The notes under the pieces: generated by a model
Databases searched by the model: none
What the model was told of the DNA's origin: nothing
What the model saw: only the letters and a program-made list of their open reading frames with translations
Program-made: the position numbers and the translations under genes
NCBI GenBank assembly: GCA_012295275.1
Contig: CM022677.1
Location: 1 to 64,000, forward strand
Length of the DNA: 64,000 nucleotides
Direction of reading: 5' to 3'
DNA from: Chrysomallon squamiferum
Taxonomy: Eukaryota; Animalia; Mollusca
Shown: one piece after another, positions 12,593-54,829 of the stretch
Layout of the letters: the number at the start of each line of letters is the position of its first letter
Numbering within the stretch: the stretch's first letter is position 1

Positions 12593-12600
12593 CTTATATT

Positions 12601-12657
<57 letters not shown>

Positions 12658-12855
12658 CAGAATAATAATAATAAGAAGAACAACAACAACAACAAGAAAA
12701 AGGAAGAAAAAGAAAGGATCGACAAAAGCTTCTACTTTCTTTTTTTTCTTCATATAAATCAAGGTGCATGATATATTTAAAGTTAAATATTTCTTTGTAA
12801 GTAGAGACTTTAACTTTAGAACAAGTGTGTTTCTGATGAATTTAAACTCCATCTT

Positions 12856-12936
<81 letters not shown>

Positions 12937-13390: not shown

Positions 13391-13438
<48 letters not shown>

Positions 13439-13875
13439 TATTATTCACTGCTATCAAAAGACGAAAAATAAATAAAACAAGACCTAAGATAACATTAAGC
13501 TGACAAATTATCTGAAAGTGTGAAATAATGGAATAATGTTGTAATCCAAACACTAAAACTGTTTAATTAACTATTCACTGTCCTTCTTCTTACTGTTACT
13601 TCAAATAATAACACTTGTCAAGATAATTGCCAGGTCGCTACTTAAACACTCTCAGTTCAAAGACAAATTTGTTTGTTATATGTTACCAAGAGAATGGGAA
13701 AACTTAATTACAATGATACAGAAAAAGATAAAACAGTTTCAGGTATCATATATAATTCTTAAGTGAATCGGACATTACACATAAAACTGAAAATTTCATG
13801 GATTATACATATTCTTTGTATCAAACACACACATTGTCTGAGCATATATGCATGCTTCTATGTATTTTTGTGTCT

Positions 13876-13964
<89 letters not shown>

Positions 13965-13978
13965 CGCGAGAGAGAGAA

Positions 13979-14016
<38 letters not shown>

Positions 14017-14102
14017 TGTGTTCCGGAAGGTAGGACATTAAAACTATTTCTGTGGTTTACAGACTTTTATTTTATTTCATTTGATTTGTTTTCATTCATT
14101 TA

Positions 14103-14163
<61 letters not shown>

Positions 14164-14305
14164 TAATAATAATAATGCTAAATTTAAATGCCCTGTTTCT
14201 GTGGGATTTTCAATAAACATTGATTTTAATTTATTTTCTAAAACATTCTATTATTCATTCTATTATTTCATTTATTAAGGCAGTTATTATTCCGTATTAT
14301 TCTAG

Positions 14306-20836
<6,531 letters not shown>

Positions 20837-21277
20837 TAAGTTGATACGTTACATTTTACTTATTTTCTTTGTGTTTTTTCCATCTTCCAGTTTCTTATTT
20901 AGCCTTCGTCTTTAAATAATTTATTATTTGTATTTTTACTTTACTTCATTCGTCTTCGTTTTGATTTGTTTTGTTCTATTTTTCTCTTCTTTTCTTTTAG
21001 TTTTTTCTTCCTCTTTCTTGTTTAGTCTTCATCTGTTAGCTAGTATTAATCGTTACTCTTATATTCATATGGTTCCTAATTATTCATTTATTTATGTCAG
21101 TATTATCATTATTAAATACAAATAATAGAAACATACATTTTCCACAAGTGTATATAACACACACACATACACAAATGCATGTAAACGTATATATTATGTA
21201 CAAGTGATGCGTTGTTTAGAGGCCGTCTTATCGGATATACATAATAATAATAATACTAATACTAATAATACTAATAA

Positions 21278-21357
<80 letters not shown>

Positions 21358-21361
21358 CAAA

Positions 21362-21396
<35 letters not shown>

Positions 21397-21814
21397 ATGT
21401 TTCTACAACTGAACGTAGCGGACTCATGTGGCGTTATAGAGATCACACTGACGCACTAAGACAAGATCGTATGGTAGTCAAGTACAGTAACTATATAACC
21501 GTGTTTCGATAGATACAATAAATAACTATGATGCTAGTTTATGTAATGTGGCTGTTGTAGTACACAGTATTTTTGAATAATTCACTTACTTAAAAAAATA
21601 GCAATACACTACTGCAAATACACAAATATAATTCATTTGTTTTGTTCTGACAACGTTGAACTGTTTACGTCACGTTTCTAAGAACGTATCCAGGATGTTA
21701 AGCAAGGCGTGACAGTTATGGAAATGAACGATGTCGTTTTTATTTATATTTTCTTACTTCCAGGTTGACGATGAATCTCCTGATGAGGAAACAGAAACTT
21801 CAACAAATGTATGC

Positions 21815-21858
<44 letters not shown>

Positions 21859-22986
21859 GAAATAGGAAACTGAGAAGTTGAATGTTCAAGTTGTTGCTTT
21901 GTTTTACAAGTGATAGTTTCCTCAGACACTCGATTTGAAATATCTAGCGAGTGTCTCTCTGTGTTTTGTGTGTGTGTGTGGGTGTGTCAGAGAGAGAATA
22001 CGTGTGTTTTGGTATATATGTGACTGTGTCTGTGTATTTATATGGATGTATGTAAAGGGATATGTCTCATTCTGTGTGTATGTGTGTGTGTATGTGTGTC
22101 CCTGTATGTGTGTGTTTGTGCGAGTGTGTGTATGCGAGTAAAAATGTTGTGAATATATTTTGTTTCCCTCTATGGGTGTATTGAATAGCAATGTTTATTT
22201 AAAAGTCTTTATAATTGTTTCTACATTATATAATTTATCCTTATGAATTTATATATCTGATAGTATAATCTTATATGTTTGTATAGTAACTATTTTTATA
22301 GTTGATGTATATTTGTAAATATTTTCTTTCACTGTACAGGATATTATTACTGTTTATATTTAATGATAGTGTACCACATTGATTACCAAGTTTTATATTA
22401 ATAGGGAAATAGGTTTCTTATTAAAATATGCAAATTTGATGATTCACACTTATAATGTAAATATTCTGCACGTATCTGCATGTTTTGAAACAATCTCTCT
22501 GTCAGTTTCATATTAAAAATATTCAGTTATTTTATAAACATATTGTTTCTCATTAAACATTATTTTAATTATACTTTCCTGTGTTTCTCTTTAAAAACGT
22601 GATGTTCTGTCTGTGTCATATAAATACACATAACAGTTAATGCATTATTCAGATAACTGTCACTATGTGTTATTCTCTCTCTCTGTGTATCTGCCTATAT
22701 CTCTGTTTTTTCCGTCTCTCTATCTGTCTCTGTGTTGACTTCTTTATATATCTTTGTATTTATGTGTATATCACTTAAACTATCAATAATTCAGTCATTT
22801 AATATACATATTTGTTTGACGGGCGGTGTATCTACATATTTGTTTGACGGGCGGTGTATCTACTTATGTATCTCTCAAACTGTTTCAGATATCTCTCTAT
22901 CTGTTTCAGAGTTTACTTTTGTTCGTGTTTCTGTCTGTCGCGTCTTCTGAGTTGGCTGATACAAGACAAATATTACAAAGCATCAA

Positions 22987-23064
<78 letters not shown>

Positions 23065-24971
23065 CCAACAATAATAAATAATAATCAAACAAACAAGTAA
23101 ACATACAAATAAATAAATAATGAATAAATAAATAAATAACATATTTAAACCAACAAACAACAGCTATATAAACAAACACAACAGTTGAAAATATTTGTGT
23201 CTTGTTCAGAGAGCAGATTACAAATTATTTTAACTATCCCAACCACTTCAAAGCCATCAGAATAACGTATATTTTCGGCAACAACAACAACAACGATGAT
23301 AAAGATGATATACAAAAGGAGTGAAATAAAAAAATGATTAAACAAATAAACAATAATATAGACGGAATGAATGATCTAATCGTGTTTGTTATCTGTCTGT
23401 AAATAAGTTAATAAGTAAGTAAATAAAAACTAAATAAATAAATAAATAAACAAAACAAAATAAAATAAAATAAAATACAAATATTGCAAATATAGCTTTC
23501 CAAAATATAATTAATAATCCATTTTTAAAGTAATTTGTTTTAATTTTCCTCGGGCACTAATGCAACTGTCTCTCTCTAAATATAATCCAAATTTCTGTTC
23601 TCCCTTTGACTTTCATTTTCATCTTTTTGTCGCTGTTCTCATTTATTTTAAAACTATTTTAAACAGATCGAGTCTTGACTTTAATTACGCTCTCTCTGTT
23701 ATATTTACTGAACAACATTGTAAACGCGTCACCAGTTGATGGATAAGTACGCTAACGGCGTATACACTCTGCATAACAATAATAGCAATGATGATGATGA
23801 CGACGACAATAAGAACAACAAGAGCAGCAGCAGCAACAACAACAACAACAATAATAATAATAGTTACATAATGACATTTAAAACACTGTAAATGATCAGA
23901 CTGATGAATTGTTTTCGACAGATTAAAAAAACTGGAGGAAGTTGAAGGGTTCAGTTTTGCTTCTAAATATGGTGAACACAACAATCACAATTCACCAGCA
24001 GAGGATTTAGACTCAATTATAGGGGAGTATCACATTTAGAGTCTTGGTAAATCTAAACATGTCATATCAGAACACTGACAGGACAGTGTGGACGGAAATA
24101 ATCTAAAGCCATAATAATAATAATAATAACAACAATAACAATAAAAACAATAGTAGTAATAGTAGCTACAGTAGTAACAATAATGATGATGATGACGATG
24201 ATAATAATAATAATAATAGCAATAATAACAACAATAAGAGTTAGAAGAATATGTAGAAAGATAATAATAATAACAACAACAACAGCAATAGCACCGACAA
24301 CAAGAGAACAACAGAAATATCAAAACAATAACACATTTTTTGAAATTCATATTTTTCTCCCACTCTCCCTGGCATGCAAGTTGTTAGATCCGGTCCTAGT
24401 GTGTTCCTAGTTGTCTTCCTCTTTGTGTCATTGTTTTATTAGAAACAGCAGGAAAGTAGAGACATATCAGTGTTACACTGGCTGTACAGTAACATATCTA
24501 CATACAATACTTTGTTTCATGTGTTTTGCATTTTAAAAAAAATCTTTTTTTTAAATAATATTGTGATTGTTATTTGAGATAAAATGAATCACGTGATTAT
24601 CGTTTTTCTTTTAATGCTTCTTCCTCGTCATTCTTTAGCAGGTTAATAACACATCGTTTATTTATTACTAGTTGTAGTAATAATAGAAGTAATAGTAGTG
24701 TAGTAGTGTTAAAGAGAATAGTAGTATTAGTGGCAGTCGCACTAGTTTTAGACCAAGTAGCAGTTTTGATTATAATGACAGTAGCAGTAGTAGTAGAACT
24801 TTTAGTAGCAGTAACAGCGGCATTAGTAATGGTCATAGCAACATCATAAGTGTCGTGGTAGTAGAGGCAGCTGTTGTTGGTGTGGAAATTGTAGAACTAA
24901 TATGGTAGTAGTGGTTGTTGTATTTTTATAGTTCTACAACCTATTGTTGCCGGAGTAGTCGTAGAAGTAAT

Positions 24972-25042
<71 letters not shown>

Positions 25043-25742
25043 TTTCAGGTTAAACTGAACATGAGAGGAAAAGTAATATTATTATGTTAACATATATGTT
25101 TGAAAATGAATTTTCACGTCGACTTTCTCTGGCTTTCTTTCAATCTTTATTTCCAAAGAATCAACGCGAACGTCAAAATAATAAAATAAAATAAAATAAA
25201 AATGAAAATAAATAAATAAATTTAAAAAAATCATAGAACTATATTTGCTCGTGGGATCTTAACTCTTACATTGTTGTAACTGGACAGACGTAGGAATTGC
25301 ATTCTGTTCCTTAAAGATGAAATTATTTAAATATGTCTCGCACAGTTCTAGTTAGAGAGAAAAAATATATAATTTATATTTATTTATTTATCTATTTATT
25401 TATTTATTTATTTATTTATTGTAGTGAACTGTCATATCTGTATATTTTACGAAGATTATTTTGAAATTTTGCACTGTTATTCTGTGTTTCGTTGAGTTCT
25501 GGAAAGAGGAAATGAAGTTATCGTAGACTGGTGTTTAAGGATAATTTAACACAAGATATGTTAAAACGTTAGCTTGCATCTATAACTGAACATTCTCAGT
25601 GTTTTGATATTCTGTCGCATTTATCTGACAATGAGTTCAACGTCTGTAAACAATATAGTCCTTAGTTGTGGTTTTTTGTTTTCTAAAATACATTTCCTAT
25701 CGTACCTTTTGTAAATAAAATATTGATTACACTTTATTATTA

Positions 25743-25868: not shown

Positions 25869-26068
25869 NNNNNNNNNNNNNNNNNNNNNNNNNNNNNNNN
25901 NNNNNNNNNNNNNNNNNNNNNNNNNNNNNNNNNNNNNNNNNNNNNNNNNNNNNNNNNNNNNNNNNNNNNNNNNNNNNNNNNNNNNNNNNNNNNNNNNNNN
26001 NNNNNNNNNNNNNNNNNNNNNNNNNNNNNNNNNNNNNNNNNNNNNNNNNNNNNNNNNNNNNNNNNNNN
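25869..26068. other. Assembly gap (200 N)
   Basis: Run of exactly 200 N, likely a fixed-size scaffold spacer. Confidence 1.
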
Positions 26069-34238: not shown

Positions 34239-34490
34239 ATGGCGTCGTCTCGTCTCTTTCGTTTTCTTTGTGTCGTCGTTCTTTCAGTTGTGATTGATGG
34301 CGAACAAGACCTAACGCGTGAAGAGAAGCAGAAAGGTGACGACGTTGTGACTGCAGTCGTAGATCAGATCAGAGACAACTGCATCTTCTCTCAGGACAGA
34401 CTTTTCTTGCAGCGACTGGTTCTAGTTGAGTCCGATAATGGGGGAGATACAAAAACATACAGAAAAGGGTTTTACGGAGGAATTTGGCAG
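34239..34490 (+). CDS. Signal peptide + first half of N-terminal domain
   Basis: MASSRLFRFLCVVVLSVVIDG-EQDLTREE...RLVLVESDNGGDTKTYRKGFYGGIWQ|gtgaaa. Confidence 0.8.
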
Positions 34491-34625
34491 GTGAAACTTT
34501 ATTTATTTATTTATTTATTTATTTATGTATTTATTTATTAGTGAATTTTATAGAATACGATATAACTTTGTGAAAAATATATATACAAATATAAGAAGAA
34601 ATATACATAATGAAAGAAAAGGAAA

Positions 34626-34666
<41 letters not shown>

Positions 34667-34730
34667 CAATATAGTATCGATTATTTATTCTTATTTAATA
34701 AAAAAAATCAATTATTAAATATTTTTTGAG

Positions 34731-34983
34731 GTTGATGAATCAAAATTCAATGAAACTAATCACTGCCCGCCACCTGTTAGTGTGACGTGTGACAGAATTA
34801 TGACGTCACTCAACATAACATGGCAGCAGGTGAAGTGGAGTGATCTACTAAAACCGCTGTATTCTGGACTGAAGAGTGGGATCAGCATTCCCGGTGACGT
34901 CACAAGCCAAGCGTTGCCGTGGAAACGTATCTACAGCCCGAATGAGTCTGTCGATGTGTTTACACGAAAAGCCGATGTCAATG
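34731..34983 (+). CDS. Second half of N-terminal domain
   Basis: ttttgag|VDESKFNETNHC...ITWQQVKWSDLLKPLYSGL...IPGDVTSQALPWKRIY...ADVN|gttggt. Phase-compatible with both neighbouring exons. Confidence 0.75.
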
Positions 34984-35777: not shown

Positions 35778-35793
35778 GTTATTATTTTCACAG

Positions 35794-36074
35794 AGACTTG
35801 TAAGACAAATTTAGATTTAGTGTTTATTGTTGATGCGTCGGGCAGTATTGGTGCGCACAACTTTATACGTGTTCAAAACTTTCTCGTTGACGTTGTCCGA
35901 GGCCTCGACATCAGCGCCGACCACACCAGAGTAGCTACCGTCAGCTTCAGCAGTTCCCCGTATGTAGACTTCGACCTTTCAAAGTACAGGAACGTCAACG
36001 GTGTTGTCAATGGAATTAATAACGTGTATTACGACGGGGGAGGTACTAATACAGACACAGCAATCAAAAAATGA
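35794..36074 (+). CDS. von Willebrand factor A domain exon (truncated)
   Basis: cacag|ETCKTNLDLVFIVDASGSIG (MIDAS DxSxS)...TRVATVSFSS...FDL...YDGGGTNTDTAIKK*. Confidence 0.9.
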
Positions 36075-36142
36075 AATATTCGCAGAGAATCACGGAATCC
36101 GAAAAACTCGAAAAATGTTGCCCGGACGTTTAAATTATTTCC

Positions 36143-36482
36143 TTAAATGGTTTTATCAGTCTCAGACCGTAATTTTTTAATAATTTTTAAATGGAGTTAT
36201 CTCTCTTAGACCGTACATTTTTAAATAATTTCCTTATATGGAGTTATCTCTCTTTGACCGTACATTTTTAATAATTTCCTTAAATGGAGTTATCCCTCTT
36301 AGACCGTACATTTTTAATAATGTCCTTAAATGGAGTTATCTCTCTTAGACCGTAAATTTTAATAATTTCCTTAAATGGAGTTATCTCTCTTAGACCGTAG
36401 GATACAAAATATTTTCTTAATTAGAATTACCTCCCTTACATTGTAAAATGTATTAATTTCTCTAAATGGAGTTGTCTCCCAT
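36143..36482. repeat. 46-bp tandem array, ~7.5 copies
   Basis: Unit ttaaatggagttatctctcttagaccgtacatttttaataatttcc. Central copies are conserved and edge copies degenerate. Confidence 0.93.
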
Positions 36483-36546
36483 GCGTCGCAACAATCATAT
36501 AGAGTGGAACAGAACAACACTGTGCAGAATCTTGTAACATTGCAAA

Positions 36547-36552
36547 TTTATT
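36547..36552 (-). terminator. Polyadenylation signal AATAAA of the insert gene
   Basis: tttatt on the + strand, ~110 nt past the stop of the readthrough frame (36665). Confidence 0.55.
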
Positions 36553-36910
36553 AAACTTCAAAAAAAGGATAACACGAACAGAGAATAGATCTTAATAACG
36601 TATAATGTCTCCTGATTTCGTCATCGTTTGTACCACCAGTAGGTCAATAGGAGTGAATTTTTTCTCACTTTGGAACTGCTGTGAAAATATGTCGGTCGTA
36701 ACAAGTCAGTCGTTGTCGAATAGTCTGGTCTAAATTGAGAAAGAAAGAGACCAATGCGAAGCTGAGAAGGAAGAGAACTAATATGAAAAGACAGTAAACA
36801 AACGTCTCGAGAAAGTTCCAAGTGCACTTTCTGAGGATACACGTAGCTGATTGAACGTGGTTTGTGCAACATACGTCGACAGCGTTCTTTTCGTTCTTCT
36901 TCACGCCTAG

Positions 36911-37946
36911 TCAATCTTCATTCATCTGGAAAGAAGAAACGAAAAGTCTGTTAAAAAGAGGGACGTGTGAGTTCAAATGAAATGGAAATAAAAAGGTGAC
37001 GTCTGTGTTGTTGCGTTTCAGAAAACTGAAGGTAACTCACCGTTTCTTCCTCGTTCTTTCTCGACCCTTTTCGTTGTTTTACTTCCGTTTCCTGACTGCT
37101 TGGAAGAAAGTGCTGGAACGTGGTGACCTGTCCGTTCTTTATTTTCTCTGCCCGGTTGGCAGCAGCGGCGTCGCTCCCGGTGGTGTCTGCGGTGGCTGCA
37201 CCAGGACCGGAATGGAAACACTCCTCGCTCCAGTCCGCTACGACACCGTCCTCCGCGACCTCTTCAACCGCGACATCTCCGTCTTTTGGATTCGTCGCTA
37301 CCTCTTTCAGAACGAGAGTGAGATCGACGTCGCACGCTTCGTCGTCTTCGACTCTTCTCCAGCGGTAACCGATCTCCAGTGAGTTCGTACCGAGGGAGGA
37401 GTATCCTCTCTTCGTGTTCTTCACAAACTTCGTGTAGAAGAGAAGATTGCAGACTCTGCGGACGGTGAGTCGCAGACCGCACCTGCCTGCTTCTTTGCTC
37501 AGCGCCTGCAACTCTTTGTCTTCGTAGAGCCTCTTCCGGGCTGGAGCGGTGCAGACGATGTGCAGATTCGAGTACGTTGACCACACCCATGGGTCGTCGG
37601 TGCCTGTGTGCACCACGAGGTTGCTGTGTCGTTTGCCGTCGTCCGAGCCGACCCTGGGTCGGACGTTCGACGTCAGAAAGACCTTGGCTCTGTTCAGGAA
37701 TCGCCTGAGATCTACAGGAAGTTCTTCCAGGTGTTGCAGTTTCGTGCTCCACCTCAACACTGGAACGACGTTCAGGAGGTCTTTGGACACGTACTGAGCG
37801 AATGGGCGACCTTTGGAATCTGTGAAGTTGCAGTTCTTTTGCTTCACCATGACATTGAGATACCTGCGAGAAAACAATTGACCAAGGCGGGAATCTCTCG
37901 CGTGAATTCCCGTTCCAGGACTGACTATCAAACTGTAGTAAGGCAT
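36911..37946 (-). CDS. Insert gene: ~306-aa protein of unknown function (possible HUH/Rep-like fold + acidic tail), extendable to ~388 aa by readthrough to 36665
   Basis: ATG at 37946 (A at -3), open for 302 codons to a GTGAGT donor at 37040. A 115-nt intron ends ttttcgtttcttctttccag. Exon 2 from 36925 reads ATG AAT GAA GAT TGA CTA G. Confidence 0.7.
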
Positions 37947-38009
37947 CTTGCTTGTCTTCTCTCTCTTGCAGATTTCTAAAATCACGTCCTTCTTCTCCCG
38001 AAGACACTA

Positions 38010-38170
38010 CAATAATGAACGAAACTACTCCGTCCTAATTTTTTATATACTATTTTTTTTTTTTTACAGTCAGTCAGTGATTGGTCTCAGTGAGTCAATG
38101 TACCACATGTTACGAGAGCTACGTCACTTCCGGTTTGCAATCTCATGAAATTGTGGTGTGACGTCACGGC
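38010..38170 (-). promoter_or_regulatory. Compact Pol II promoter of the insert gene
   Basis: CRE palindrome GTGACGTCAC 38158-38167, ETS-CRE composite CCGGAAGTGACGT 38121-38133, AP-1 TGACTCA 38091-38097, CCAAT 38080-38084, TATATAAA 38042-38049, Inr-like TCATT 38014-38018. All are in the correct order and orientation for the ATG at 37946. Confidence 0.75.
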
Positions 38171-39011
38171 GGAAAAGAATGACTTCAAAATGTGGGGTTT
38201 TTTAAACTTCGAGCCCGTCGTAAAGGAAAACAAAGAAAGTACGTTCTTCTCTTCGTAATCGACCCCTCCCCTCTTCGGGCGACTCGACTGGAGGCTCCCT
38301 CCATTCTGACGTGCAACGATGTCTTCTCTCTGAACACGAAGGATTCCGGTACGACCGCCGTTTCGAAGACGTTTCGAAGGCGTCTCCGGCGGAGATGTTG
38401 TCCTCGTCGTCCATGTCGGAAGTTTGAGTTCCGACCGATACCGTCGCTGGGGGGTCTCTGAGTTCGAACACGCATCGTCGTACCTCCTCCGCCCATCTCT
38501 CGCATCGAAAACCACAACGTAGCACCTATGTCAGTTGGACATTACAATCATCATCATTATCATCATCACCAACATCTTGAGAATCTTCATCCTTACAATA
38601 ATCATCAGGATCATCAATATCATTATCATCATTATCTTCATTACTTTATGTAATACAAAACAGACATTGTTTGTTTGTTTGTGTGTATATGTGTCTGTAT
38701 GTGTGTGTGTGTGTCTGTTTGTCTGTCTGTCTATACGTTCTATTGTTACTGACAGGTTTGGAAGTCGTGTGCAGAGAACACGGAACTGAGCGGGAATATA
38801 CGAAGCTGGATTTTATGATGAGTAAATACAAAAAGTATCTTAGTACAGGTAATTATTTGTATACCTCTATTATTTTTTTGTTGTTGTTGTTGTTTTTTTG
38901 TTGTTTTTTTTTTTTTTTTTTTTTTGTTGTTGTTTTTTTTTTTTAAATTATTATTATTTTATTATTATATTGTATGTGTGTGTGCAAATTGATTTGAAAA
39001 ATATTCTACAG

Positions 39012-39449
39012 ACGTCAAACAATAAAATAAAAATAAAGAAAGCACCTCCATCCAACGTTTCTAATCCGTGCACTCCGGAAAAGAATGTGAACGGCAACGT
39101 CTTTTTTTTCTCATATCCACCAGACAAACGTAAATTCATTTACTGCGACTCGTGGGGTTACGCTCACTTACTGTCCTGTCGCCATGGAGATATCTGGTAC
39201 CAGAACGCTCAGATGTGCTCTCTTTACGTCGCAACGAACTCTCCCGGAAACGGAACTAGTTCTCTTGATTACAGTCTTCTGTGTTCCCAAGGCGGTGAAT
39301 TCTACCATCATCCAAGCGATCCGCACAAATACATCAACTGCGGCCCTGACGGCTTCTACTACGTACAGGCGTGTCCCATTCACGTGGTTTTTGACATCAG
39401 AGATCGTGCTTGCGTCCGTCAACACGACATCGGAACAGTTATTGGCTAA
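39012..39449 (+). CDS. Terminal exon with two chitin-binding type-2 (peritrophin-A/CBM14)-like domains
   Basis: NPC...FFSYPPDKRKFIYCDSWG...SCRHGDIWYQNAQMC and LC...YHHPSDPHKYINCGPDG..YVQACPIHVVFDIRDRACV. Ends GTVIG*. AATAAA follows at ~39477 and ~39528. Confidence 0.82.
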   Translation, partial: TSNNKIKIKKAPPSNVSNPCTPEKNVNGNVFFFSYPPDKRKFIYCDSWGYAHLLSCRHGDIWYQNAQMCSLYVATNSPGNGTSSLDYSLLCSQGGEFYHHPSDPHKYINCGPDGFYYVQACPIHVVFDIRDRACVRQHDIGTVIG

Positions 39450-40466: not shown

Positions 40467-41249
40467 GTGAGTTAGTCAGAAAATATAAAATTACATTTGT
40501 AATATCGTTATATTAGTAACTGTTGACGTCGTAGAAGTTGTAGCAGTAGAGATAGTTATAAAAGTTGAACAAACATTAAAATGAACGGGCTGTGACAGAA
40601 ATAATGTAATAGTTGTCGCAGTTGTAATGTATTGATAGTAGTAGTAGTAGTAGTAGTACTAGTACTAGTAGTAGTAGTAGTATGATGCTTGAACCAACTT
40701 TTTTTGTTAGTGGTGATAGTTGTAGGACTGGTAATGATAATAATAATAATAATTATTATAATAATAAAGTGAAATCAATATTTTATTTACAAAAGGTATG
40801 ATAGGAAATGTATTTTAGAAAACTAAAAACCACAACTAAGAACTATATTGTTTATGGATGTTGAACTCATTGTCAGATAAACGCGACAGAATCTCAAAAC
40901 ACTCATAATGTTGAGTTATAAAAGCAAGCTAACGTTTTAACATATCTTGTTTTAAATAATCCTAAAACACCAGTCTACGATAATATCATTTCCTCTTTCC
41001 AGAACTCAACAAAACATAGAATGATAGTGCAAAATTTCAAAATAATCTATGACAATTCACTACAATAAATAAATAAATAAGTAGATAAATAAATAAATAT
41101 AAATTTTATATTTTTTCTCTCTAACTAGAACTGTGCGAGTCATATTTAAATAATTTCATCTTTCGGGAAATTGAATGTAATTCCTACGTCTGTCCAGTCA
41201 CAAAAATGTAAGTGATAAGATCCCACGAGCAAATACAGTTCTATGATTT

Positions 41250-41324
<75 letters not shown>

Positions 41325-41508
41325 TTTTTTTTTTTTTTTTTTTATTATTATTATTTTTTTTTTTTTTTTTTTTGACGTTCCCGTTGATTCTTTGGAAATA
41401 AAGATTGAAATAAAGCCAGAGAAAGTCGACGTGAAAATTCATCAGATATATTAACATAATAATATTACAATCACGTACTTTTCCTCTCATGTTCAGTTTA
41501 ACCTGAAG

Positions 41509-41551
<43 letters not shown>

Positions 41552-42486
41552 ATTACTCCTACGACTACTCCGGCAACAATAGGTTGTAGAACTACAAAAA
41601 GTATAATAACCACTACTACGATATTAGTTCTACAATTTCCACACCAACAACAGCTGCCTCTACTACCAGGACACTTATGATGTTGCTAAGACCATTACTA
41701 ATACCGCTGTTACTGCTACTACAACTTCTACTACTACTGCTACTGTCATTATAATCAAAACTGCTACGTGTTCTAATACTACTTCTACTACCACTAATAC
41801 TACTATTATCTCTAACACTAGTACACTCATATTACTTCTATTATTACTGCAACTAGTAATAAATAAACGATGTGTTATTAACCTGCTAAAGAATGATGAA
41901 CAAGAAGCATTAAAAGAAAAACGTTAATCGCGTGATTCATTTTATCTCAAATAGCAATCACAATAGTATTAAAAAACCAAACATTTTAAAATGCAAAACA
42001 CATGAAAGAAAGTATTGTGTGTAGATATGTTACTGTACAGCCAGTGTAACTCTGATATGTCTCTAATTTCCTGCTGTTTCTAATAAAACAATGACACAAA
42101 GAGGAAGATAACTAGGAACACACTAGGACCGGATCTAACAACTTGCATGGCAGGGACTTAGGGAGAGTGGGTGAAAAATATGAATTTCTAAAAATTTGTT
42201 ATTGTTTTGATACGTGTTGTTCTTTTGTTGTTGGTTCTATTGTTGTTGTTGTTGTTGTTATTATTATTATTAATATTATTGGTGTAGATTGTCTCGTTAC
42301 ATATTCTTCTAACTCCTATTGTTGTTATTATTGCTATCATTATTATTATTATCATCGTCATCATCATCATTATTGTTACTACTGCAGCTACTACTACTAT
42401 TGTTGTTGTTGTTGTTGTTGTTCTTCTTCTTCTTCTTTTTTATTATTATTATCATTATTATTTTTATTATTATTATCATTATTATC

Positions 42487-42555
<69 letters not shown>

Positions 42556-43607
42556 GTTATTATGGCTTTAGATTACTTCCGTCCACATTGTCCTGTGTTC
42601 TAATCTGACATGTTCAGATTTACAAATGTTTTACTCCCCTATGGTATGAGTGTAAATCCTCTCCTGGTTGTACTGTCATTGTTATGTTCACCATGTTTAG
42701 AAGCAAAACTGAACCCTTCAACTTCCTACATTTTTTTAAATCTGTCGTAAACAATTCATCAATCTGATCATTTACAGTGTTTTAAATGTCATTATGTAAC
42801 TATTATTATTGTTGTTGTTGTTGTTGTTGCTGCTGCTGCTCTTGTTGTTCTTATTGTCGTCGTCATCATCATCATTGCTATTATTGTTATGCAGAGTGTG
42901 TACGCCGTTAGCATACTTATCCATCAACTGGTGACGCGTTTACAATGTTGTTCAGTAAATATAACAGAGAGAGCGTAATTAAAGTCAAGACTCGATCTGT
43001 TTAAAATAGTTTTAAAATAAATGAGAACAGCAACAAAAAGATGAACATGAAAGTCAAAGGGAGAACAGAAATTTGGATTATATGTAGAGAGAGACAGTTG
43101 CATTAGTGCCCGAGGAAAATTAAAACAAATTACTTTAAAAATGGATTATTAATAATATTTTGGAAAGTTATATTTGCAATATTTTTATTTTATTTTATTT
43201 TATTTTATTTTGTTTTGTTTATTTATTTATTTTTTATTTACTTACTTATTAACTTATTTACAGACAGATAACAAACACGATTAGATCATTCATTCCGTCT
43301 ATATTATTGTTTATTTGTTTAATCATTTTTTATTTCACTCCTTTAGTATATCATTGTTATCATCGTTGTTGTTGTTGTTGCCGAAAACATACAAGTTATT
43401 CTGATGGCTTTGAAGTGGTTGGAATAGTTAAAATAATTTGTAATCTGCTCTCTGAACAAGACACAAATATTTTCAAGTGTTGTGTTTGTTTATATAGCTG
43501 TTGTTTGTTGGTTTAAATATGTTATTTATTTATTTATTCATTCATTATTTTTTTATTTTTTTGTTTGCTTGTTTGTTTGATTATTATTTATTATTGTTGG
43601 TTTATTA

Positions 43608-43656
<49 letters not shown>

Positions 43657-44624
43657 TTGATGTTTTGTAATATTTGTTTTGTATGAGCCAACTCAGAAGA
43701 CGTGACAAACAGAAACAGGTAGAGAGATATCTGAAACAGATAGACAGATACATAAGTAGATACACGGACCGACACACAAATATATAGATTAAATGACTAA
43801 CTTACTGATAGTTTAAGTGATATACAGATACATACAAGGATATATAAAGAAGTAAACACAGAGACAGATAGAGAGACGGAAAAAACAGAGATATAGGCAG
43901 ATACACAGGAAGAGAGAAAAACACATAGTGACAGTTATCTGAAGAATGCATTAACTGTTATGTGTATTTATATGACACAGACAGAACATCACGTTTTTAA
44001 AGAGAAACACAGCAAAGTATAATTAAAATAATTTTTAATGACAAACAATCTGTTTATAAAATAACTGAATATTTTTAATATGAAACTGACAGAGAGATTG
44101 TTTCAAAACATGCAGATACGTGCAGAGTATTTACATTATTAGTGTGAATCATCACATTTACATATTTTAATAAGAAACCTGACTATTTCACTATTAATAT
44201 AAAACTTAGTAATCAATATGGTTCACTATCATTAAATATAAACAGTAATAATATCCTGTGCAGTGAAAGAAAATATTTACAAATATACATCAAGTATAAA
44301 AATAGTATACAAACATAAAAGATTACACTATCAGATATATAAATTCATAAAGATAAATTATATAATGTAGAAACAATTATAAAGACTTTTAAATAAACAT
44401 TGCTATTCAATACACCATAGAGGAAAAAAGAAAAGAAACAAATATTCACAAATTTTTTGCTCGCATACACACACTTTCACGAACACACACACATTCAGAG
44501 ACACGCACAAATACACACACATATACACACAGACTGAGACATATCCCTTTACATACATTCATACAAATACACACACAGAAACATACATACCGAAACACAC
44601 GTATTCTCTCTCTGACACACGCAT

Positions 44625-44678
<54 letters not shown>

Positions 44679-44836
44679 CACAGAGTTACACTCTCGCCAG
44701 ATATTTCAAGTCGAGTGTCTGCGGAAACTATCACTTGTAAAACAAAGCAACAACTTTAACATTCAACTTGTCAGTTTACAATGAACGCAGTCCCGTTGTT
44801 AATCCTTATTGCTTATTATTATTATTATTATTATTA

Positions 44837-44882
<46 letters not shown>

Positions 44883-45349
44883 GCCTGTATTTGTTGAACT
44901 TTCTGTTTCCTCATCAGGAGATTCATCGTCAACCTGGAAGTAAGAAAACATAAATAAAAACGACATCGTTTATTTGCGTAACTGTCAGGCCTTGCTTAAC
45001 ATCCTGGATACGTTCTTAGAAACGTGACGTAAACAGTTCAACGTTGTCAGAACAATACAATGAATTATATTTGTGTATTTGCAGTAGTGTATTGCTTTTT
45101 TAAGTAAGTGAATTATTTAAAAACACTGTGTACTACAACAGCCACATTATATAAACTAGCATCATAGTTATTTCTTTTATCTATCGAAACACGGTTATAT
45201 AGTTACTGTACTTGACTACCACATGACAATCAGCAAAACCGATCTTGTCTTAGTGCGTCAGTGTGATCTCTATAACGCCACATGAGTCCGCTACGTTCAG
45301 TTGTAGAAACATTTATTAATTAATTAATTAATTAATTTATTAATTTTAT

Positions 45350-45423
<74 letters not shown>

Positions 45424-45838
45424 GTGTATTCGATCAGACGGCCTCTAAACAACGTATCACTTTGTACATAATATATTCGTTTACATGCATTTGTGTATGT
45501 GTGTGTATGTGTACGTGGTATATGGACTTGTGGAAAATGTATGTTTCTATTATTTGTATTTAATAATGATAATACTGACATTAAATAAATGAATAATTAG
45601 GAAACATATTAATATAAGAGTAACGATTAATACTAGCTAACAGATGAAGACTAAAGAAGAAAGAGGAAGAAAAAACTAAAAGAAAAGAAGAGAAAATAGA
45701 ACAAAACAAATCAAAACGAAGACGAATGAAGTAAAGTAAAAATAAAAATAATAAATTATTTAAAGACGAAGGCTAAATAAGAAAGTGGAAGATGGAAAAA
45801 ACACAAAGGAAAGAAGTAAAATGTAACGTATCAACTTA

Positions 45839-46230
45839 CTACTTCTTAACTTTTTTGACTTCAGTGTACAAGTTGTTGATATCAACTGTTTGATCTTCTG
45901 TCTGTGTTTTAGTTTTTTCGTTCACTTTTCTAACCTGTGTGTACAAACAGGACACGTCTTCCATTTCGGCTTTCCCACAATTCCCTGGTTCTCGTTTAAC
46001 TGTGTTTACCTGTGAGTACAAATCTGAAACCTCAACCTCCGCTATGTGGCTTCCTGTTTGACCGGATGTTGGCGCCGATTTATTTCCCTTTTTCGGAAGT
46101 GCATACAGAGCATCCATTGCTTCGGCTTGAGCTGTGTTTGTAGTGGTTGCCATGGAATTCTTGTCTTCGGGGACATCGTACTGAGCTTCACTCACAACGT
46201 TGTTCTCACCAGCACGTAAAACTGTAACAT
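45839..46230 (-). CDS. Receptor B terminal cytoplasmic exon
   Basis: About 12 differences in 130 aa versus copy A. All five Tyr motifs of this exon are retained. Confidence 0.8.
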
Positions 46231-46339
46231 CTTCCAAGAGAGAGAAAACAACTTAAACCTTGTAACAACAACAAAAACAACGACAACAACAGCTAAACAA
46301 AAGAGGGGAAAATATATGTGAAATAAGAAATATCCGTTT

Positions 46340-46380
<41 letters not shown>

Positions 46381-47102
46381 TATCTTCATCTTCATCATTA
46401 CAGTTATTATCGTTATTATTATTATTACTAGTAGTAGTAGTAGTAGCAATGGTAGTGGTAGATGGAGCAGTTGCATAGTGAATGTAGTAGTGGGAGTGGT
46501 AGTGATAGCAGTAATAGTAACAGTGGTGGTAATAGTAATAGCAATAGTGATAGCAGTAGTACTACTAGTAGTCATACCAGTGTAAAATATGTTGTCGTTG
46601 TAATCGTATTACCTGCATGATTTGAAGAACTGGGTGAAACAAAGTAGAGTTCATTGTCAAACATAACTGTACAAAAAAGAAATAAAAAGCACTACAAATA
46701 AACAACCCATTTCTGTATGTATGTATGTATGTATGTATGTATGTATGTGTGTATGTATGTATATATGTATGTGTGTGTGTATGTGTGTGTGTGTGTGTAT
46801 ATATATATAAATGTTGCCATTTATCAAGCTACTATACAACATTTGCCATGTGAACTTTCTAAAAGAGACTTGTTTACAGAAAAATGCAACTAGTATTTGT
46901 TCAAACATGAAATACGTTTTTTTTAAATAGAATACATTCATTAGTTTCACTTTGTGAAGTTTTCACTTACTTTCATTTTCCTCCACGTGGCTGTGGACAG
47001 CAGCAGCTTGGCTGCCTGTTTAATAAAAAAAAAAAAAAAAAAAATAAAAATATTTCTTTCTTAGAAATTACTCGTTAGTACTACAACAGAAGAACGGCTA
47101 CA

Positions 47103-47277
47103 TTAAGCACTATCAGATTACGTAATGACATTAACGACTATCAGATTACGTAATGACATTAATGACTATCAGATTACGTAATGACATTAATGACTATCAG
47201 ATTACGTAATGACATTAATGACTATCAGATTACGTAATGACATTAAGGACTTTCAGATTACGTAATGACATTAAGGC
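47103..47277. repeat. 28-bp minisatellite, ~6 copies (arm B counterpart of 18981-19578)
   Basis: Unit actatcagattacgtaatgacattaatg. Confidence 0.9.
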
Positions 47278-48617
47278 AAATTACACAAATTCAACAAAAC
47301 AGACAAAATAATAAAACAAACCGCATCTGTTTTCCAGATTTCGTAATGACATCATTGCTCCGCTGTTTGTAATGATATGAGTTTATCTTTTACAAATTAA
47401 TAAAATACAACAAAACAGACAAAATAATAAAACAAACTGCATCTGTTTTCCCTTTCTAGTCCGTGCCCCACTGTTTGTCAAGTGATATGAGTTTATCTTT
47501 TACTACTTTGTTAGTTCACAGCGTCCTAGCCGTAACAGGAAGTTTCATCTCGTTTTATGTGTGACTCTTGACAATAATACTATGTCAGAAATTTCTCTAG
47601 ATATAAAAAGATCGATTCAGTCCTCACGTTTTCCTCTATTTATTTTTCCCTTTACATTCCTTTAGACTTTCCTTTCTTCCGTTATTAACTTGTCAAATCA
47701 TTTCGTTTATTCCATTTATGTCCTCCCAATATTAATTACCTTCTTCTTCATTTGTTCTACCATCTAGTCATATATTCATTCAGTCTATTACACTTTTGTT
47801 CATTCGTTATTTCTCACCTGAAAGACAGGATCTAAAGACAGGGAAGGTTTTAGTTTGTTAGAATTTAACTAAAAAGTCTCTACACTTACTTTTACTCTTG
47901 GTTCGTTTGACGATGCACACAGTTAAAATTACAACGACAAGAACGAGAATCACTCCTGACACAGAACACGAAACAACGACAATCATAAACCAACTCTTTT
48001 TATCTGTGAATTTAAAATAATGTTCACATCTTTGTTAACTGTATATTATAAACAAAATAACGATGATGATAATGACGATGTAAAATAATGAAATAAACAA
48101 GTAAACAATTAAATAAATGAATAATAACAGAAACAAGAGTAATAGAAATGTAAGTGTATGTATCAGTTTGCATATTTTTACGTGTGTGCTTATCTGTGTA
48201 TCTATGTGTACATGTGTTTTTGTGTTCTGGCCTGTCATTTTATTTATAAAAGAAAAGAAAACGAACAAAACATATAGATACATGCAAATACAAATTTATT
48301 TTTAGATAAAATCAGAGATCTGTTATATGTTTACAATGTTCTGTAATGAATCAAAGATTGAATTAATTACATAAGTAATTAAATTAATCAGACAGGTAAG
48401 AACAGGTATCCACACGTAGGTTACATTTACCGATATAAGCTGTATTTAAGATAAAGTATTGTGTACCATCATTAAATATATTCAGTGATAAAAAACAGAA
48501 ACAAGTATTTAAGATAGTTATGTTATAATATCTGTTAATTCTTTTCTCTCTCTCTCTCTCTCTCTCTGTGTGTATATACATACACACGAGACAGAGAGAG
48601 ACAGAGAGAAAGAGATA

Positions 48618-48749
<132 letters not shown>

Positions 48750-49341
48750 TGATCAGATATGTAATAACTCACATGTATTTCTTTGTGGTATGTACGTATA
48801 TATTTATGATTTCATACGAGTGTGTGAATGTGTGTGAGTGTGTGTGAGTGTGAGTGTGTTAGTGTGTGTGTTTGTGTTTGTGCGTGTGTTTGTGTGTGTG
48901 TGTGTGACGAGCTCTGCTTAATTTGATGTTTCAGTTTTAAGTATATTTACTATTATTGTCTGTATGAGTCACAACACTTTCATTCGGTGTCGCTTTTTTC
49001 TTTGTAGATTCCACAGAATTTTCTTCACGTGTAGGTAGCTTCGTGATTTTGTGGGAGGAAACAGTAGGTGTACCCGTGTCGTTGTTATCTGACGTCACAG
49101 TTGTTTCGTTTGACGTAATAGGGTTCGTTTCTGGTGTCTGGCCTGAAGAAGTAAATAATTTAAACAATTTAATTAATAAACATTGAATGTTCTTATGTTG
49201 ATAGCAGATGCAGCACAACCCATATAACTGTTCTTGCCATTGCTGTTATTACTATCGTCATCACTTTTGATCAATTTCATATTTAAATAAATAAATAAAG
49301 TACAAAACAACAACAACAACATAATAATAATAATAATAATA

Positions 49342-49380
<39 letters not shown>

Positions 49381-49838
49381 TAGCGTTACTGTGTGAAAAT
49401 GTCACTGGCTAATATATAAGTTATTGCTGATATGCATTTATCGTCGACTTCACTGTACTACTACTAATATCTCCGGCACTGCGTTTGCTACTGTCACTAC
49501 ATCTATTACTAGTATTACTTATATTAACAGTAACACTACTGTTACACTATCACTTCTACTGATACTACCAAAGCTGTTATCACCACTAGTGTTATTTCTA
49601 TTACAAGTATTGATTGTGCTAATGTTACCACTATTATAAGCACTGCTACAACTATTACTGTCAATATTACTACTACTGTTACTGCTACAATTACTACGCA
49701 TACTACTAATAATAATACTACTACTACTACTAATAATGATGATGATGATAATAATAGTAATAATAATAATAATGATACTACTACTACTTCTACTAGTACT
49801 ACTAATAATAATGATAATAATAATAGTACAGTACTTAC

Positions 49839-50183
49839 GTGTTGGTGTAATGGGGTTGCTCTTATATTTATCACTGCTGCATGTCCATCTCTTAGAATTG
49901 TTCATAGAAATTGAAGATACTCTCAAACTGTAACTCGTTAAATAACTTTTCACTGTATTTAAAGTTTTATTTCTTGTTTGTACAAACTTACATCCGTATT
50001 TTTCTGTCGAACTTTTGTGTATGTTACATGTTTGTGTTTTATATGTACATGTACAAATGGTCTCATACCCTCGCTTAAATGCGATATCTTCTTTATAAAT
50101 ATTTCCAATAACAGAACAAACAAATGTGAAAGTTTGATTGATGACAGCCGTCCAGGAATACAGTGCTAAACCAGGATTTATAG
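49839..50183 (-). CDS. Receptor B Ig-like domain 2 exon (open, highly diverged)
   Basis: INPGLALYSWTAVINQTFTFVCSV...YSLRVSSISMNNSKRWTCSSDKYKSNPITPT, with intact splice sites and all 6 Cys. Confidence 0.8.
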
Positions 50184-50191
50184 CTGAAATA

Positions 50192-50226
<35 letters not shown>

Positions 50227-52837
50227 ATAGTAATAGTAGTATTTTTAGTAGTATTAGTATTAGTAGTAGTAGTAGTAATAATAATAATGTATTTCTATAT
50301 TTAGTAATGAACAATAAACTATAGTATTATTATAGATTGAACAGCAGAACAACAACAGTTCTAGAATTTTTAAATATTGTTCACTAAAACTTTAAAAATT
50401 GCTGTTAGAATTGTTCCTGTACGTCCTTTTATATTTGATTTTGAAAACTCTGTCGAGTTACAAGATGTTAAGATAATTTGTTTTCATAATAAATCAATAA
50501 TATTGAAACAAAATAAAGAAATAAATAAATAAAAAGAAACTGTAATATAATAGTGAACACACGCGTTCAATGACAATTCTGAAATGAACATGAAATTGTC
50601 AAATTAAGACCAACCAAAGTGGCACAAGTGGACGACAACCTGATTATATTAAAGAAAACAGCAGAACACCGCGAAAATAAGTAAATTAATAAAAATAAAT
50701 TAACCAGGAAAGGTAACAGAATCAACAGATTTTAAGAGGAGGTGGACATAAGACATTTTGACTGCAGTTAAACCTTAGTTAAAATTCATATTAGATGATT
50801 TAAAGTTTTTAACAATCACATATCTTACTTCTTTACATTGTTTTAATATACATTATTATATTAATGTATATATATTCTATGTGTACTGAAGATTAATCAT
50901 ACGGTGAGTTTACGAGGGTTAATAATTTACGTTCAGTATTTCCCTGGACTTTAGATGCTTTCTCCACCCCTGTTAGACCGTAAAATCGAAGGTAAAAAAA
51001 GAATAAAAATAAGATTAATATATGTCCAGATTAGATATAGAAATATATATTCACCCTCAACTGTCGTCAGTCCACAGCAAAAATATATTTGACTCTGATA
51101 GCACTTGTAAATAACATAAATATAACGAAATTACGCCTTTTGTGTTACTTCATTAATTAATGAATATTTTATTTATTTATTTTTTTTTTTATTTAGTTTA
51201 TATATTTTACAAAGTACATCAAATTAGCTTCTGGTTTAATATGTTAAGTTGATAGTTATCCACAAAACCAAACTTCTTCATTTCAAAAAAATGAAGTTAT
51301 AAAATTATAGTTTTTAACACTACTGTCATTGTTTAGAACATCAGCCCTAAACTGGACGTAAAGAAAGTTCAGTAACTTACACGTAGTCTCCTCTCTGTAC
51401 ACAGTCACACACACACACACACATTTATTTATTATACACACACACATATATTCACAAACACACACACACACAAACATATACACACACACACACACAGACA
51501 CACGCACACACACATAATGAAAATAAAAAACAATCTAAAAAACAATGAGAACAGGTGACATAATTAGTCAGTGAGTTGAAGAGGAGTCGCACAAGTCTAA
51601 AGTTCAGTGACTGCAGTTAAACTTGTAAATATTTATACTTGATGATTTCTTAAACCTTTCTTAAGGATCAAAGTTGTCATATCTTTATACTGTTTTTTAT
51701 ATCTCTGTGTTCTTACATTATTATGTTACTGTATTATATAGCTGTTATGTGTACTGAAGTTTAATCATTCGGCACATTTTTTAGTTAATATTTTCCCGAT
51801 CCTGACATTTTCCGGACTGGTGCTCCCGCTACTAGTCCATAGAATTGAGGGTCAACAGTGTTTCCAAATTTTAGTTTTATTTATACCAATGTATTACTTT
51901 TTATAAATAAAGTGAAATAATACATAAAGTGAAAAACTCTTTGTAAAAGTTTTATGAATATATAAAATAAATGAATAAATTTGTACGCAATTTTGAATAA
52001 AAAATATATGAATAAAATAATTTCGTTTCCATTTTATTTATTTATTTTATTTGTGTTTTTTTATATATATTTGTTTATTACAATATTTGTTTATTTATTT
52101 ATTTGTTTATTTATTTGTTTGTTTGTTTGCGTGTTTAAGAAAGTACATTTCAAAAAACTTACAAATTACAGCAACTTATGGTTCAGTCCACATTTCAAGT
52201 TGATCAGATCCACAAAACCAGACTCCAGCGTCATCTTCAGTGGTCTGATGTTTATAAACTGTGTAATCTTTGTAGTCGCTGTTAGCTTTGTTTGTCTTAG
52301 CACTGACAAATGTAACTTTGTGTACTGTTACAGCTACACGTGTCTCCTCTCTGTACACAGTCACACACTGTAGTGTTATCAGTTTGTGTTTTGTGTACAA
52401 ACTTTATATCAGAATTCAGATTCTGTGACTCGCGTACTCGACACGTAATAAACATCGTACCACCTTTTAGTACAGGTATCACGTTCAGTAATTCAAATTT
52501 TGCACCTAGAATAATACGGAATAATAATTACTTTAATTACTCAAATAATAGAATGAATAATAGAATGTTTCAGATAATAAATTAAAATCAATGTTTATTG
52601 AAAATCGCACAGAAACAAAGCATTTAAATTAACATTTAATTAATTAAACTAATTATTAAATAATAATAATAATAATAAGAATAATAATAATAATAATGAT
52701 GATAATGATAATGATAATGATAATAAAATAAATGAATGAAAACAAATCAAATGAAATAAAATAAAATAAAATAAAATAAAATAAAAGTCTGTAAATAGTT
52801 TTAATGTCCTACCGACCGGAACACACACGCACACATT

Positions 52838-52986
<149 letters not shown>

Positions 52987-53399
52987 ACATAGATGCATGC
53001 ATATATGCTCAGAGAATGTGTGTGTTTGCTACAAAGAATATGTATAATCCATGAAATTTTCAGTTGTATGTGTAATGTCCGATTCACTCAAGAATTATAT
53101 ATGATACCTGAAACTGTTTTATCTTTTTCTGTATCATTGTAATTAAGTTTTCCCATTCTCTTGGTAACATATAACAAACAAATTTGTCTTTGAACTGAGA
53201 GTGTTTAAGTAGCGACCTGGCACTTATCTTGACAAATGTTATTATTTGAAGTAACAGTAAGAAGGACAGTGAATAGTTAATTAAACAGTTTTAGTGTTTG
53301 GATTACAACATTATTCCATTATTTCACACTTTCAGATAATTTGTCAGCTTAATGTTATCTTAGGTCTTGTTTTATTTATTTTTCTTCTTTTGATAGCAG

Positions 53400-53438
<39 letters not shown>

Positions 53439-54204
53439 GTCACAATTATAACATTCATTCACTTGCTTGAAACTGTTATCACAGCAGAACCTTAAAATGC
53501 AATTACCTAACCAAGTTTAAATTGTACTTTTAGTATCATATGTTAACTAATGACAGTGATTAGTGTTTGCTTCTTGACTGTCAAAACACTTGTCTACTTA
53601 TTACTGAACACTATCAATGTCACTTCTCACGTGAGTAGACTAGTTGCACAGTTCTGTTCTAGATCACTTTTCTTTCAGTGAAAAAAGAAAACAGGCATGT
53701 TTGAAATTTTTCTTTGTTTTAATTTTTCTTCTGAATTTTTCACTTGACGATCATTTGATTTCTCGAGAAGAAATACGACTGATGGTTACACATGACACAC
53801 AGTAAGACAGTGTAAATAGCAGATATCTGTGTTAGCTTCCTCATTTTCTCACATCACTTACAACATACAGGACGTGACCTTTGTTACGCGTAGACAATAG
53901 AGGGTTGTGGTTTACGAGATGGAGGGACGGGCAGTAGATGTAAGGAGGTTTGATAATGAAGTGGCTTGCTGTACTCTTTATAAGGATGACGATGATGATG
54001 ATAATGATGATGATGATGATACAAATTAAAAAAAGAAAATGAAGAAGAAAAAGAACAGCAACAACTACAACTCTAGAAATCAGTGTTATGGTCTCTACTG
54101 ACAGAAATATTTAGCATTAATAAAATATATTTTGCACCCTGCAAAAAGTAGATGCTTTTGTCGATTCATTCTTCTTCTTCATCATCTTCTCCTTCTTCTT
54201 CTAC

Positions 54205-54287
<83 letters not shown>

Positions 54288-54288
54288 G

Positions 54289-54335
<47 letters not shown>

Positions 54336-54337
54336 AA

Positions 54338-54634
54338 ATGTACCTCAAGAAAAACCAGTAATAAAAGATTACGACTCTGGCGTCCCAGTTCGAGAAGGAG
54401 ACGTTTTAAAAATGTCGCGTGAAGTCACAGGAGGAAAGCCACTCGTCTCTGACGTCATATTTGTTTGTGACGGAATTAACACGAAAACGAATCTTGTTAC
54501 CATTGCAGACGTGATGACTAGATACATCACTTTTCAAATGCTAAGAACTCACCAGAATAAAATATGTCAGTGTACAGCTAAACACGTCACAAACAAATAT
54601 CTTCTGTCAACAAGCTTATCTCTTTTTGTTAACT
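54338..54634 (+). pseudogene. Disabled C2-type Ig-like exon (arm B copy)
   Basis: Open 297-nt frame VPQEKPVIKDYDSGVPVREGDVLKMSREVTGGKP...ICQCTAKH...LFVN|gtaagt. The acceptor AG is mutated to AA and the first Cys is Arg. Confidence 0.72.
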
Positions 54635-54829
54635 GTAAGTATATTAATATTACTACATTGTACAAACAACTATTTATTCAAAACTATTTATATATTCATT
54701 TGTTGTTATTAATTTATAGTTATTATTTATTACACATTTATTTATTAATTAGTGATTTATTTATTCATTCATTTATTTGTTCATTATTAATTTATTGTTT
54801 CAAGTAGTCTCTTATTAACTTGGTTTGCA

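Follow-up and report, generated by a model that had tools for sequence, protein, structure and literature searches.

What is the compact block that lies antisense inside a VWA/chitin-binding gene of Chrysomallon squamiferum, and does its reading frame still work as a gene? The block stands in a stretch of 64,000 nucleotides (nt) of contig CM022677.1 (GCA_012295275.1, forward strand, positions 1 to 64,000), hereafter the window, and an initial annotation had taken it for a recent, self-contained virus-like cassette that still looks expressible. Our analysis indicates that the block is probably a germline-inserted fragment of a divergent parvovirus-like genome, in which the open reading frame (ORF) represents the N-terminal third of NS1 without the helicase, now a decaying pseudogene with host transcription running antisense across it.

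Similarity to parvovirus-type NS1

The proposed viral origin was borne out by the ORF. Its 302-codon exon matches the N-terminal part of P0001, a protein of 668 amino acids (aa), with 28% identity (E 1.8e-8), and the C-terminal half of P0001 matches Parvo_NS1, the parvovirus NS1 helicase. P0001 and P0002 were the sole two matches among 1.84 billion representatives; P0002 is a domain-only protein of 204 aa, which may be one exon of a full NS1. These matches support the assignment of the ORF to the N-terminal part, predicted to be an HUH nuclease, of a parvovirus-type NS1. The 5.8-billion word search gave no match to the window protein, its profile version found P0002 only and a search with P0001 residues 1-240 found P0001 only, length limits applying to all three; IMG/VR, the JGI metagenomes and phages also gave no match to the window protein.

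Cleavage needs the two His of the HUH motif and a Tyr (PMC13308288). Both relatives have H-L-H and the Tyr. In the window protein, His113 is conserved, the HUH position reads N-L-H (residues 127-129), and Phe174 aligns with the Tyr of both relatives, with Tyr171 nearby; in all six DNA runs described below, Asn127 is replaced by Ser. Any protein made from the ORF would be predicted to be nuclease-inactive. No helicase was found downstream; the best match of the P0001 helicase to the block had an E of 0.45 and nothing was found in the window. One 15-residue match to the helicase query (L001) was rejected, as it does not continue in frame. NS1 with its superfamily 3 (SF3) helicase is the basis of Parvoviridae classification (PMC11357303, PMC13426907), and because the helicase, the hairpins and the catalytic residues are absent, the block cannot be filed in Parvoviridae or in one of its subfamilies. 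As an endogenous parvovirus-like element, it shows NS1 homology, via the one unnamed protein P0001, and integration, its ORF being covered in all six DNA-type runs.

Presence in the genome and structural polymorphism

Eleven sequencing runs were listed, and six DNA-type runs from three studies (X1-X6) and the sole RNA run (X9) were aligned. The finding of the ORF in every one of the six DNA-type runs confirms that the block is real and genomic, and the contaminant reading fails. ORF depth equaled that of the VWA exon in X1 and X2, which is about single-copy. At the left junction, one X2 DNA contig spans the VWA exon and the 46-bp tandem array, and on the right side the block is connected to the host exon at 38756 by an RNA contig. 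In runs X10 and X11 (organism B) almost none of the window's words occurred, and this does not prove absence.

The locus is structurally polymorphic, as a second haplotype lacks the following segment:

36962-39366, no strand: segment skipped by the deletion haplotype, with CGTGT at both ends (depth 16 in X1, 81 in X6)

This deletion of 2.4 kb joins 36961 to 39367, removes the ORF and most of the chitin-binding exon, and was found in two of the three DNA runs aligned across the locus; in X6 its depth of 81 exceeds the ORF depth of 30-50. Between haplotypes the divergence is about 5% (13 differences in 274 nt, 22 in 380 nt); hence either the insertion is not very young or there is a duplication of the locus, and the proposed recent date is doubtful.

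Neutral variation and frameshifts in the ORF

The ORF variant set comprised 41 distinct variants among those listed (40 of 66 rows, plus one from a second alignment). Ten of the 41 were synonymous, against 27% expected if neutral, and the ratio of non-synonymous to synonymous polymorphism (pN/pS) was 1.16; within the domain, 5 of 22 listed variants were synonymous. None of the 41 creates a stop in the main frame and none hits codon 174. A gap of 26-28 nt just after the domain core was listed in X1, X2, X3 and X6, that is, a frameshifted copy is present in four of the six DNA runs, and X6 has in addition a 21-nt gap and a pair of 26-nt and 7-nt gaps inside the domain. Purifying selection on the ORF was thus not seen in the variants listed, and the ORF is probably decaying without selection, a viral fossil rather than a working gene.

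Antisense transcription and splicing

Spliced RNA over the block was found on the plus strand only, in the single low-depth run X9, which supports two introns:

37938-38073, plus strand: intron from a GTAAGG donor to a poly-T acceptor tract, ACAGTCAG, spanning the ORF ATG and the TATA box (joint 37937-38074, one X9 contig)
37465-38755, plus strand: intron that starts at a GTGAGT donor within the ORF and ends before the host exon at 38756 (X9 joint 37463-38755, depth 3.2, side of 40 letters)

Both joints are GT-AG on the plus strand in canonical contexts, antisense to the viral ORF and sense to the host gene; the first uses as its acceptor the poly-T tract next to the TATA box. X9 had no cover over 36782-37401, so that the 115-nt minus-strand intron predicted there is neither supported nor excluded. 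The claim that the gene still looks expressible was not upheld, considering the neutral variation, the frameshifted and deleted haplotypes, and the fact that the only spliced RNA is antisense. In starfish and anemone, negative-sense transcripts of parvo-like endogenous viral elements (EVEs) are processed into 26-30 nt 5′U RNAs (PMC6085071). By analogy, the block is possibly a source of antisense small RNAs, and we suggest tentatively that its antisense RNA might feed the PIWI-interacting RNA (piRNA) pathway.

Anatomy of the block

The annotated layout of ATG, 302 codons, a GT-AG stretch of 115 nt, short exon, AATAAA and 46-bp array is present on the sequence, from which the features below were read unless another source is given:

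37302-37946, minus strand: NS1-like N-terminal domain, about residues 1-215 (homology), with a tentatively predicted HUH/origin-binding fold
37041-37301, minus strand: acidic linker ending in a basic cluster, to the end of the ORF exon at the GTGAGT donor
36926-37040, minus strand: predicted 115-nt intron, GT-AG, with pyrimidine tract
36547-36925, minus strand: predicted last exon, four codons and stop, then AATAAA at 36552-36547
37264-38034, minus strand: 256-codon stop-free overlapping frame, no early ATG (shuffles)
38043-38166, minus strand: promoter-like motif cluster (motif scan; function predicted)
38201-38538, minus strand: GC-rich (0.54) fragment with three long open frames

The frame runs on the minus strand from the ATG at 37946 over 302 codons to the GTGAGT donor at 37040, a length reached in none of 2000 base shuffles, and its base bias is coding-like (GC1/2/3 = 0.56/0.43/0.64). 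Unspliced, it continues to a stop at 36951-36953. The acidic linker would correspond in position to the point where the P0001 linker enters its helicase. One AATAAA follows on the minus strand, at 36552. After one stop, in the same frame as the four-codon exon, lies an 81-codon hydrophobic, Cys-rich open stretch (36665-36910, minus strand); it has no Pfam match and is possibly a decayed small membrane-protein gene.

The overlapping 256-codon frame was equaled in none of 2000 synonymous shuffles and in 49 of 5000 context-matched shuffles; it lost most of its significance under the latter, and five frames had been inspected. It showed no excess of synonymous variants (8 of 28 among the variants listed), and one listed variant creates a stop in it. 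This frame may tentatively be regarded as an NS2-like relic.

The promoter-like cluster comprises a cAMP response element (CRE) at 38159-38166, C/EBP, ETS at 38134, CRE-like at 38126, AP-1 at 38097, CCAAT at 38085 and TATA at 38049, that is, five motif classes (CRE, ETS, AP-1, CCAAT and C/EBP) plus TATA within 38043-38166. Four motif classes were reached by none of 2000 shuffles and by no other region of the window; the motifs had been picked post hoc, after viewing the sequence. The fragment beyond it is likely the end of an upstream viral gene and carries indels in other haplotypes. It reads ...TVSVGTQT... (38202-38525, minus strand), which we presume to resemble a dynein light chain binding motif. 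As to a capsid gene, no other long ORF was present and the frames flanking the ORF had no significant Pfam match. Rfam gave sub-threshold matches only.

Two descriptions of the block held in part. It has a GC content of 0.45 with 151 CpG, and the GC-richest 2.4-kb windows of the whole stretch lie at 36001-39400, but the richness is limited to 37041-37946 and 38201-38535 (0.54 each), while the array has 0.28 and the 3′ region, which could be host DNA, 0.39. CpG richness was not confirmed, because the observed/expected (o/e) ratio of the ORF, 1.10, lies among those of four neighbouring host exons (0.97-1.27). The block is microsatellite-free, with none listed between 36480 and 38546. As a self-contained cassette, it does have promoter, ORF and poly(A) signal; the array, however, occurs in unrelated contexts, neither terminal inverted nor direct repeats were found at the block ends, and folding gave no sign of terminal hairpins at the two ends (z -0.01 and -0.32).

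The host gene, the junctions and the surrounding region

The plus-strand gene around the block comprises a first exon resembling a signal peptide, a VWA exon and a CBM_14 exon. Molluscan Pif/BMSP proteins likewise combine VWA with chitin-binding domains (PMC11291548), and the host gene resembles them in layout. The features around the block are as follows:

35793-36121, plus strand: 5′ half of the host VWA exon (Pfam, run alignment)
36129-36478, no strand: 46-bp tandem array, GC 0.28 (repeat listing), covering 36129-36399 and decaying to 36478
38756-38849, plus strand: host exon that X9 RNA contigs link to the block on its upstream side and to 40152 on its downstream side
39012-39449, plus strand: host chitin-binding (CBM_14) exon, start approximate (Pfam)

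The VWA domain is cut as annotated, only positions 1-86 of the 174 of the Pfam profile being present. The insertion is not clean, however, because the remaining VWA exon does not reappear beyond the block. At 36069, 8 nt that are present in X2 and X9 are missing from the window allele; its VWA frame stops at 36072-36074, some 50 nt short of the cut near 36121, where homology to the intact VWA transcript ends. No target-site duplication of at least 5 nt was found at the junctions. In one X9 RNA contig, the exon with its end near 34983 is spliced to the VWA exon, which is followed by VWA-like sequence absent from the window (best match within the window, 13 of 18), so that an intact copy or allele exists somewhere, which is either the empty-site allele or a paralogue. 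Compared over 313 nt with 35793-36121, this transcript (record 24) has 9 differences and 16 gap letters. Another X9 contig has the exon 38756-38849 spliced to 40152, the CBM_14 exon being skipped.

The 46-bp array has loose ends that lead to unrelated contigs at 36185, 36326, 36339, 36359 and 36480, and depth is raised there; for this reason it is likely a dispersed host repeat.

The two host exons that precede the VWA exon (34239-34983, plus strand) code for a secreted N-terminal domain to which Pfam gave no significant match; it is reminiscent of a lysozyme-like fold. An inverted duplication of 14 kb (11998-25733 and 40768-54926, about 82-98% identity in the main blocks) encloses the VWA locus and two Cys/Trp-patterned exons, and one arm ends beside the assembly gap 25869-26068. 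The arm exons have no convincing Pfam match and presumably resemble Ig-type domains with a Tyr-motif tail. At 2808-3712, a 90-bp tandem array of 10 copies with 99% identity lies inside a 380-codon minus-strand open frame, whose Pfam matches were rejected as repeat artefacts with no passing stretch. The CpG o/e was 0.06-0.27 in 1001-10000 versus mostly 0.5-1.4 in 10001-64000, a pattern which suggests a methylated gene body adjoining an unmethylated domain that would include the EVE.

Origin of the block and alternative explanations

The fragment probably arose as follows. A piece of viral DNA, consisting of the end of an upstream gene, the promoter, the NS1 front end and the 3′ region, would have been joined into a copy of the VWA/chitin-binding gene by end-joining repair, and the rest of the VWA exon would have been lost at or after this event. 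The gene copy would be dead, the viral ORF would have drifted since insertion, and read-through RNA would use cryptic splice sites inside the block. Two routes could account for the poly(A) signal that comes after the linker in place of a helicase: deletion of the helicase, with a 3′ part that is fortuitous or of host origin, or a separate helicase-less cassette already present in the virus.

Several observations weigh against the fossil fragment. The homology depends on two unnamed proteins at 27-28% identity, and the window protein had no match in Pfam, PDB sequences or Atlas. Both structure models were poor (pLDDT 32 and 38), the single-sequence fold was unusable, and nucleotidyltransferase folds ranked above the B19 domain in the structure comparison; these nucleotidyltransferase matches may still be meaningful, and we set them aside as a low-confidence alpha/beta resemblance. 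In the window allele the frame remains open over 331 codons, and X3, X4, X5 and X6 have contigs that lack the 26-28 nt gap. No DNA contig among those listed, repeats skipped, bridges the right junction, where the RNA contig is the only link. ORF depth in X6 (30-50) is far below that of the flanks (about 70-165), so that the copy structure must be complex. Each X9 joint is a single contig of depth 3-5 in one unstranded run, which cannot exclude sense transcription in other tissues. Finally, plain truncation of a standard NS1 gene does not account for the intact look of the promoter, the donor, the acceptor and the poly(A) signal.

This last point leads to the alternative that the source virus had a helicase-less, nuclease-inactive NS1 paralogue as an accessory cassette that had a promoter, an intron and a poly(A) site of its own and served as DNA-binding regulator; the host copy would still be a fossil. 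We consider this possible without favouring it. The full promoter-ORF-intron-AATAAA layout with no helicase remnant agrees with it, as does the first His of the motif, missing in all six runs including both X6 haplotypes about 5% apart; since this state is common to all runs and no listed variant touches codon 174, both states are likely older than the recent drift. P0002, too, is domain-only, but it keeps the catalytic residues and may be a single exon, as described above. Parvoviruses with extra upstream cassettes exist (PMC13426907, section 3.3.1), whereas no viral genome with such a layout was found in the virus, phage and metagenome searches; the 3′ region could be host DNA and the intron is putative. 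We think it rather unlikely that all of the following hold together: an undescribed mollusc parvovirus-related lineage, whose spliced, nuclease-dead NS1 paralogue lacks a helicase, stands alone with a promoter of its own and serves as DNA-binding regulator, and a host now making antisense small RNAs against that virus.

It is improbable that the block is what remains of a Replitron-like HUH transposon lacking a helicase, or that it was carried as cargo by a host repeat element of which the 46-bp array is the mark. An HUH-like domain without helicase and array copies elsewhere would fit, but the depth in X1 and X2 is about single-copy, terminal repeats, hairpins and target duplication were not found, the nearest relative, P0001, has a parvoviral helicase, and Replitrons are known from plants, algae and protists (PMC10288648). 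Still less likely is a domesticated host gene, in which the NS1 front end would counter related viruses as a dominant-negative protein that binds origins, in the manner of DeRep or enRep-Myo9. Rodent precedents exist (PMC10384997, 10.1101/572735), the window allele is open and its expression signals look intact; nevertheless, the pN/pS of 1.16, the frameshifts in four of six runs, the deletion haplotype in two of three DNA runs across it and the exclusively antisense joints speak against it. An assembly chimera with an exogenous virus or contaminant, for which one could cite that no single contig among those listed spans the whole block, is hardly credible in view of the six runs from three studies at about host depth, the DNA contig across the left junction, the RNA splice to the right host exon and the deletion joint linking block and flank.

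Significance and comparison with known systems

The probable germline-inserted fragment ties a lineage known from two unnamed proteins to an animal host. It exemplifies a class of EVE invisible to helicase-based screens, because SF3-based screens would miss a block in which only the N-terminal domain is present. It also allows spliced antisense read-through over an EVE to be tested in a mollusc-like animal, a setting in which the piRNA defence against DNA viruses has received very little study. If the helicase-less cassette were indeed viral, it would represent a new genome plan among parvovirus relatives; losses of the helicase have few precedents among the Reps of the CRESS type discussed in PMC10288648, and such a paralogue would parallel the inactive origin-binding domains of papilloma- and polyomaviruses. 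The literature searched, a partial library, listed nothing on this locus or on a mollusc helicase-less NS1 EVE.

Parvovirus-related sequences are already known from molluscs (Francois et al. 2016, PMC5013282). Like the endogenous parvoviral elements of invertebrates, among which these count, the block is an NS1-related sequence in an animal genome, with indels and without terminal hairpins. Unlike them, it has the N-terminal domain only, belongs to a lineage with two relatives and keeps promoter- and poly(A)-like signals. The starfish and sea anemone EVEs (PMC6085071) share with it the host-driven negative-sense transcription over parvo-like sequence; they yield the small RNAs mentioned above, whereas the 11 runs listed for the block include no small-RNA run. 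Guinea pig enRep-Myo9 is similar in that enRep is a 3′-truncated replicase tied to a host gene (10.1101/572735, PMC12300724, PMC10384997), but enRep-Myo9 and DeRep of degu are conserved or protein-expressed in sense, whereas the block is antisense to its host gene and neutral. SwaBA-MePV-1-like megaparvoviruses and beetle EVEs (PMC13426907) carry extra gene cassettes upstream of NS1, some of them spliced; their NS1 has the helicase, and the likeness is one of layout only. Replitrons (PMC10288648) resemble the block in having an HUH Rep domain without a fused helicase, and differ from it in their retained catalytic Tyr, short terminal direct repeats, high copy number and weak association with CRESS Reps.
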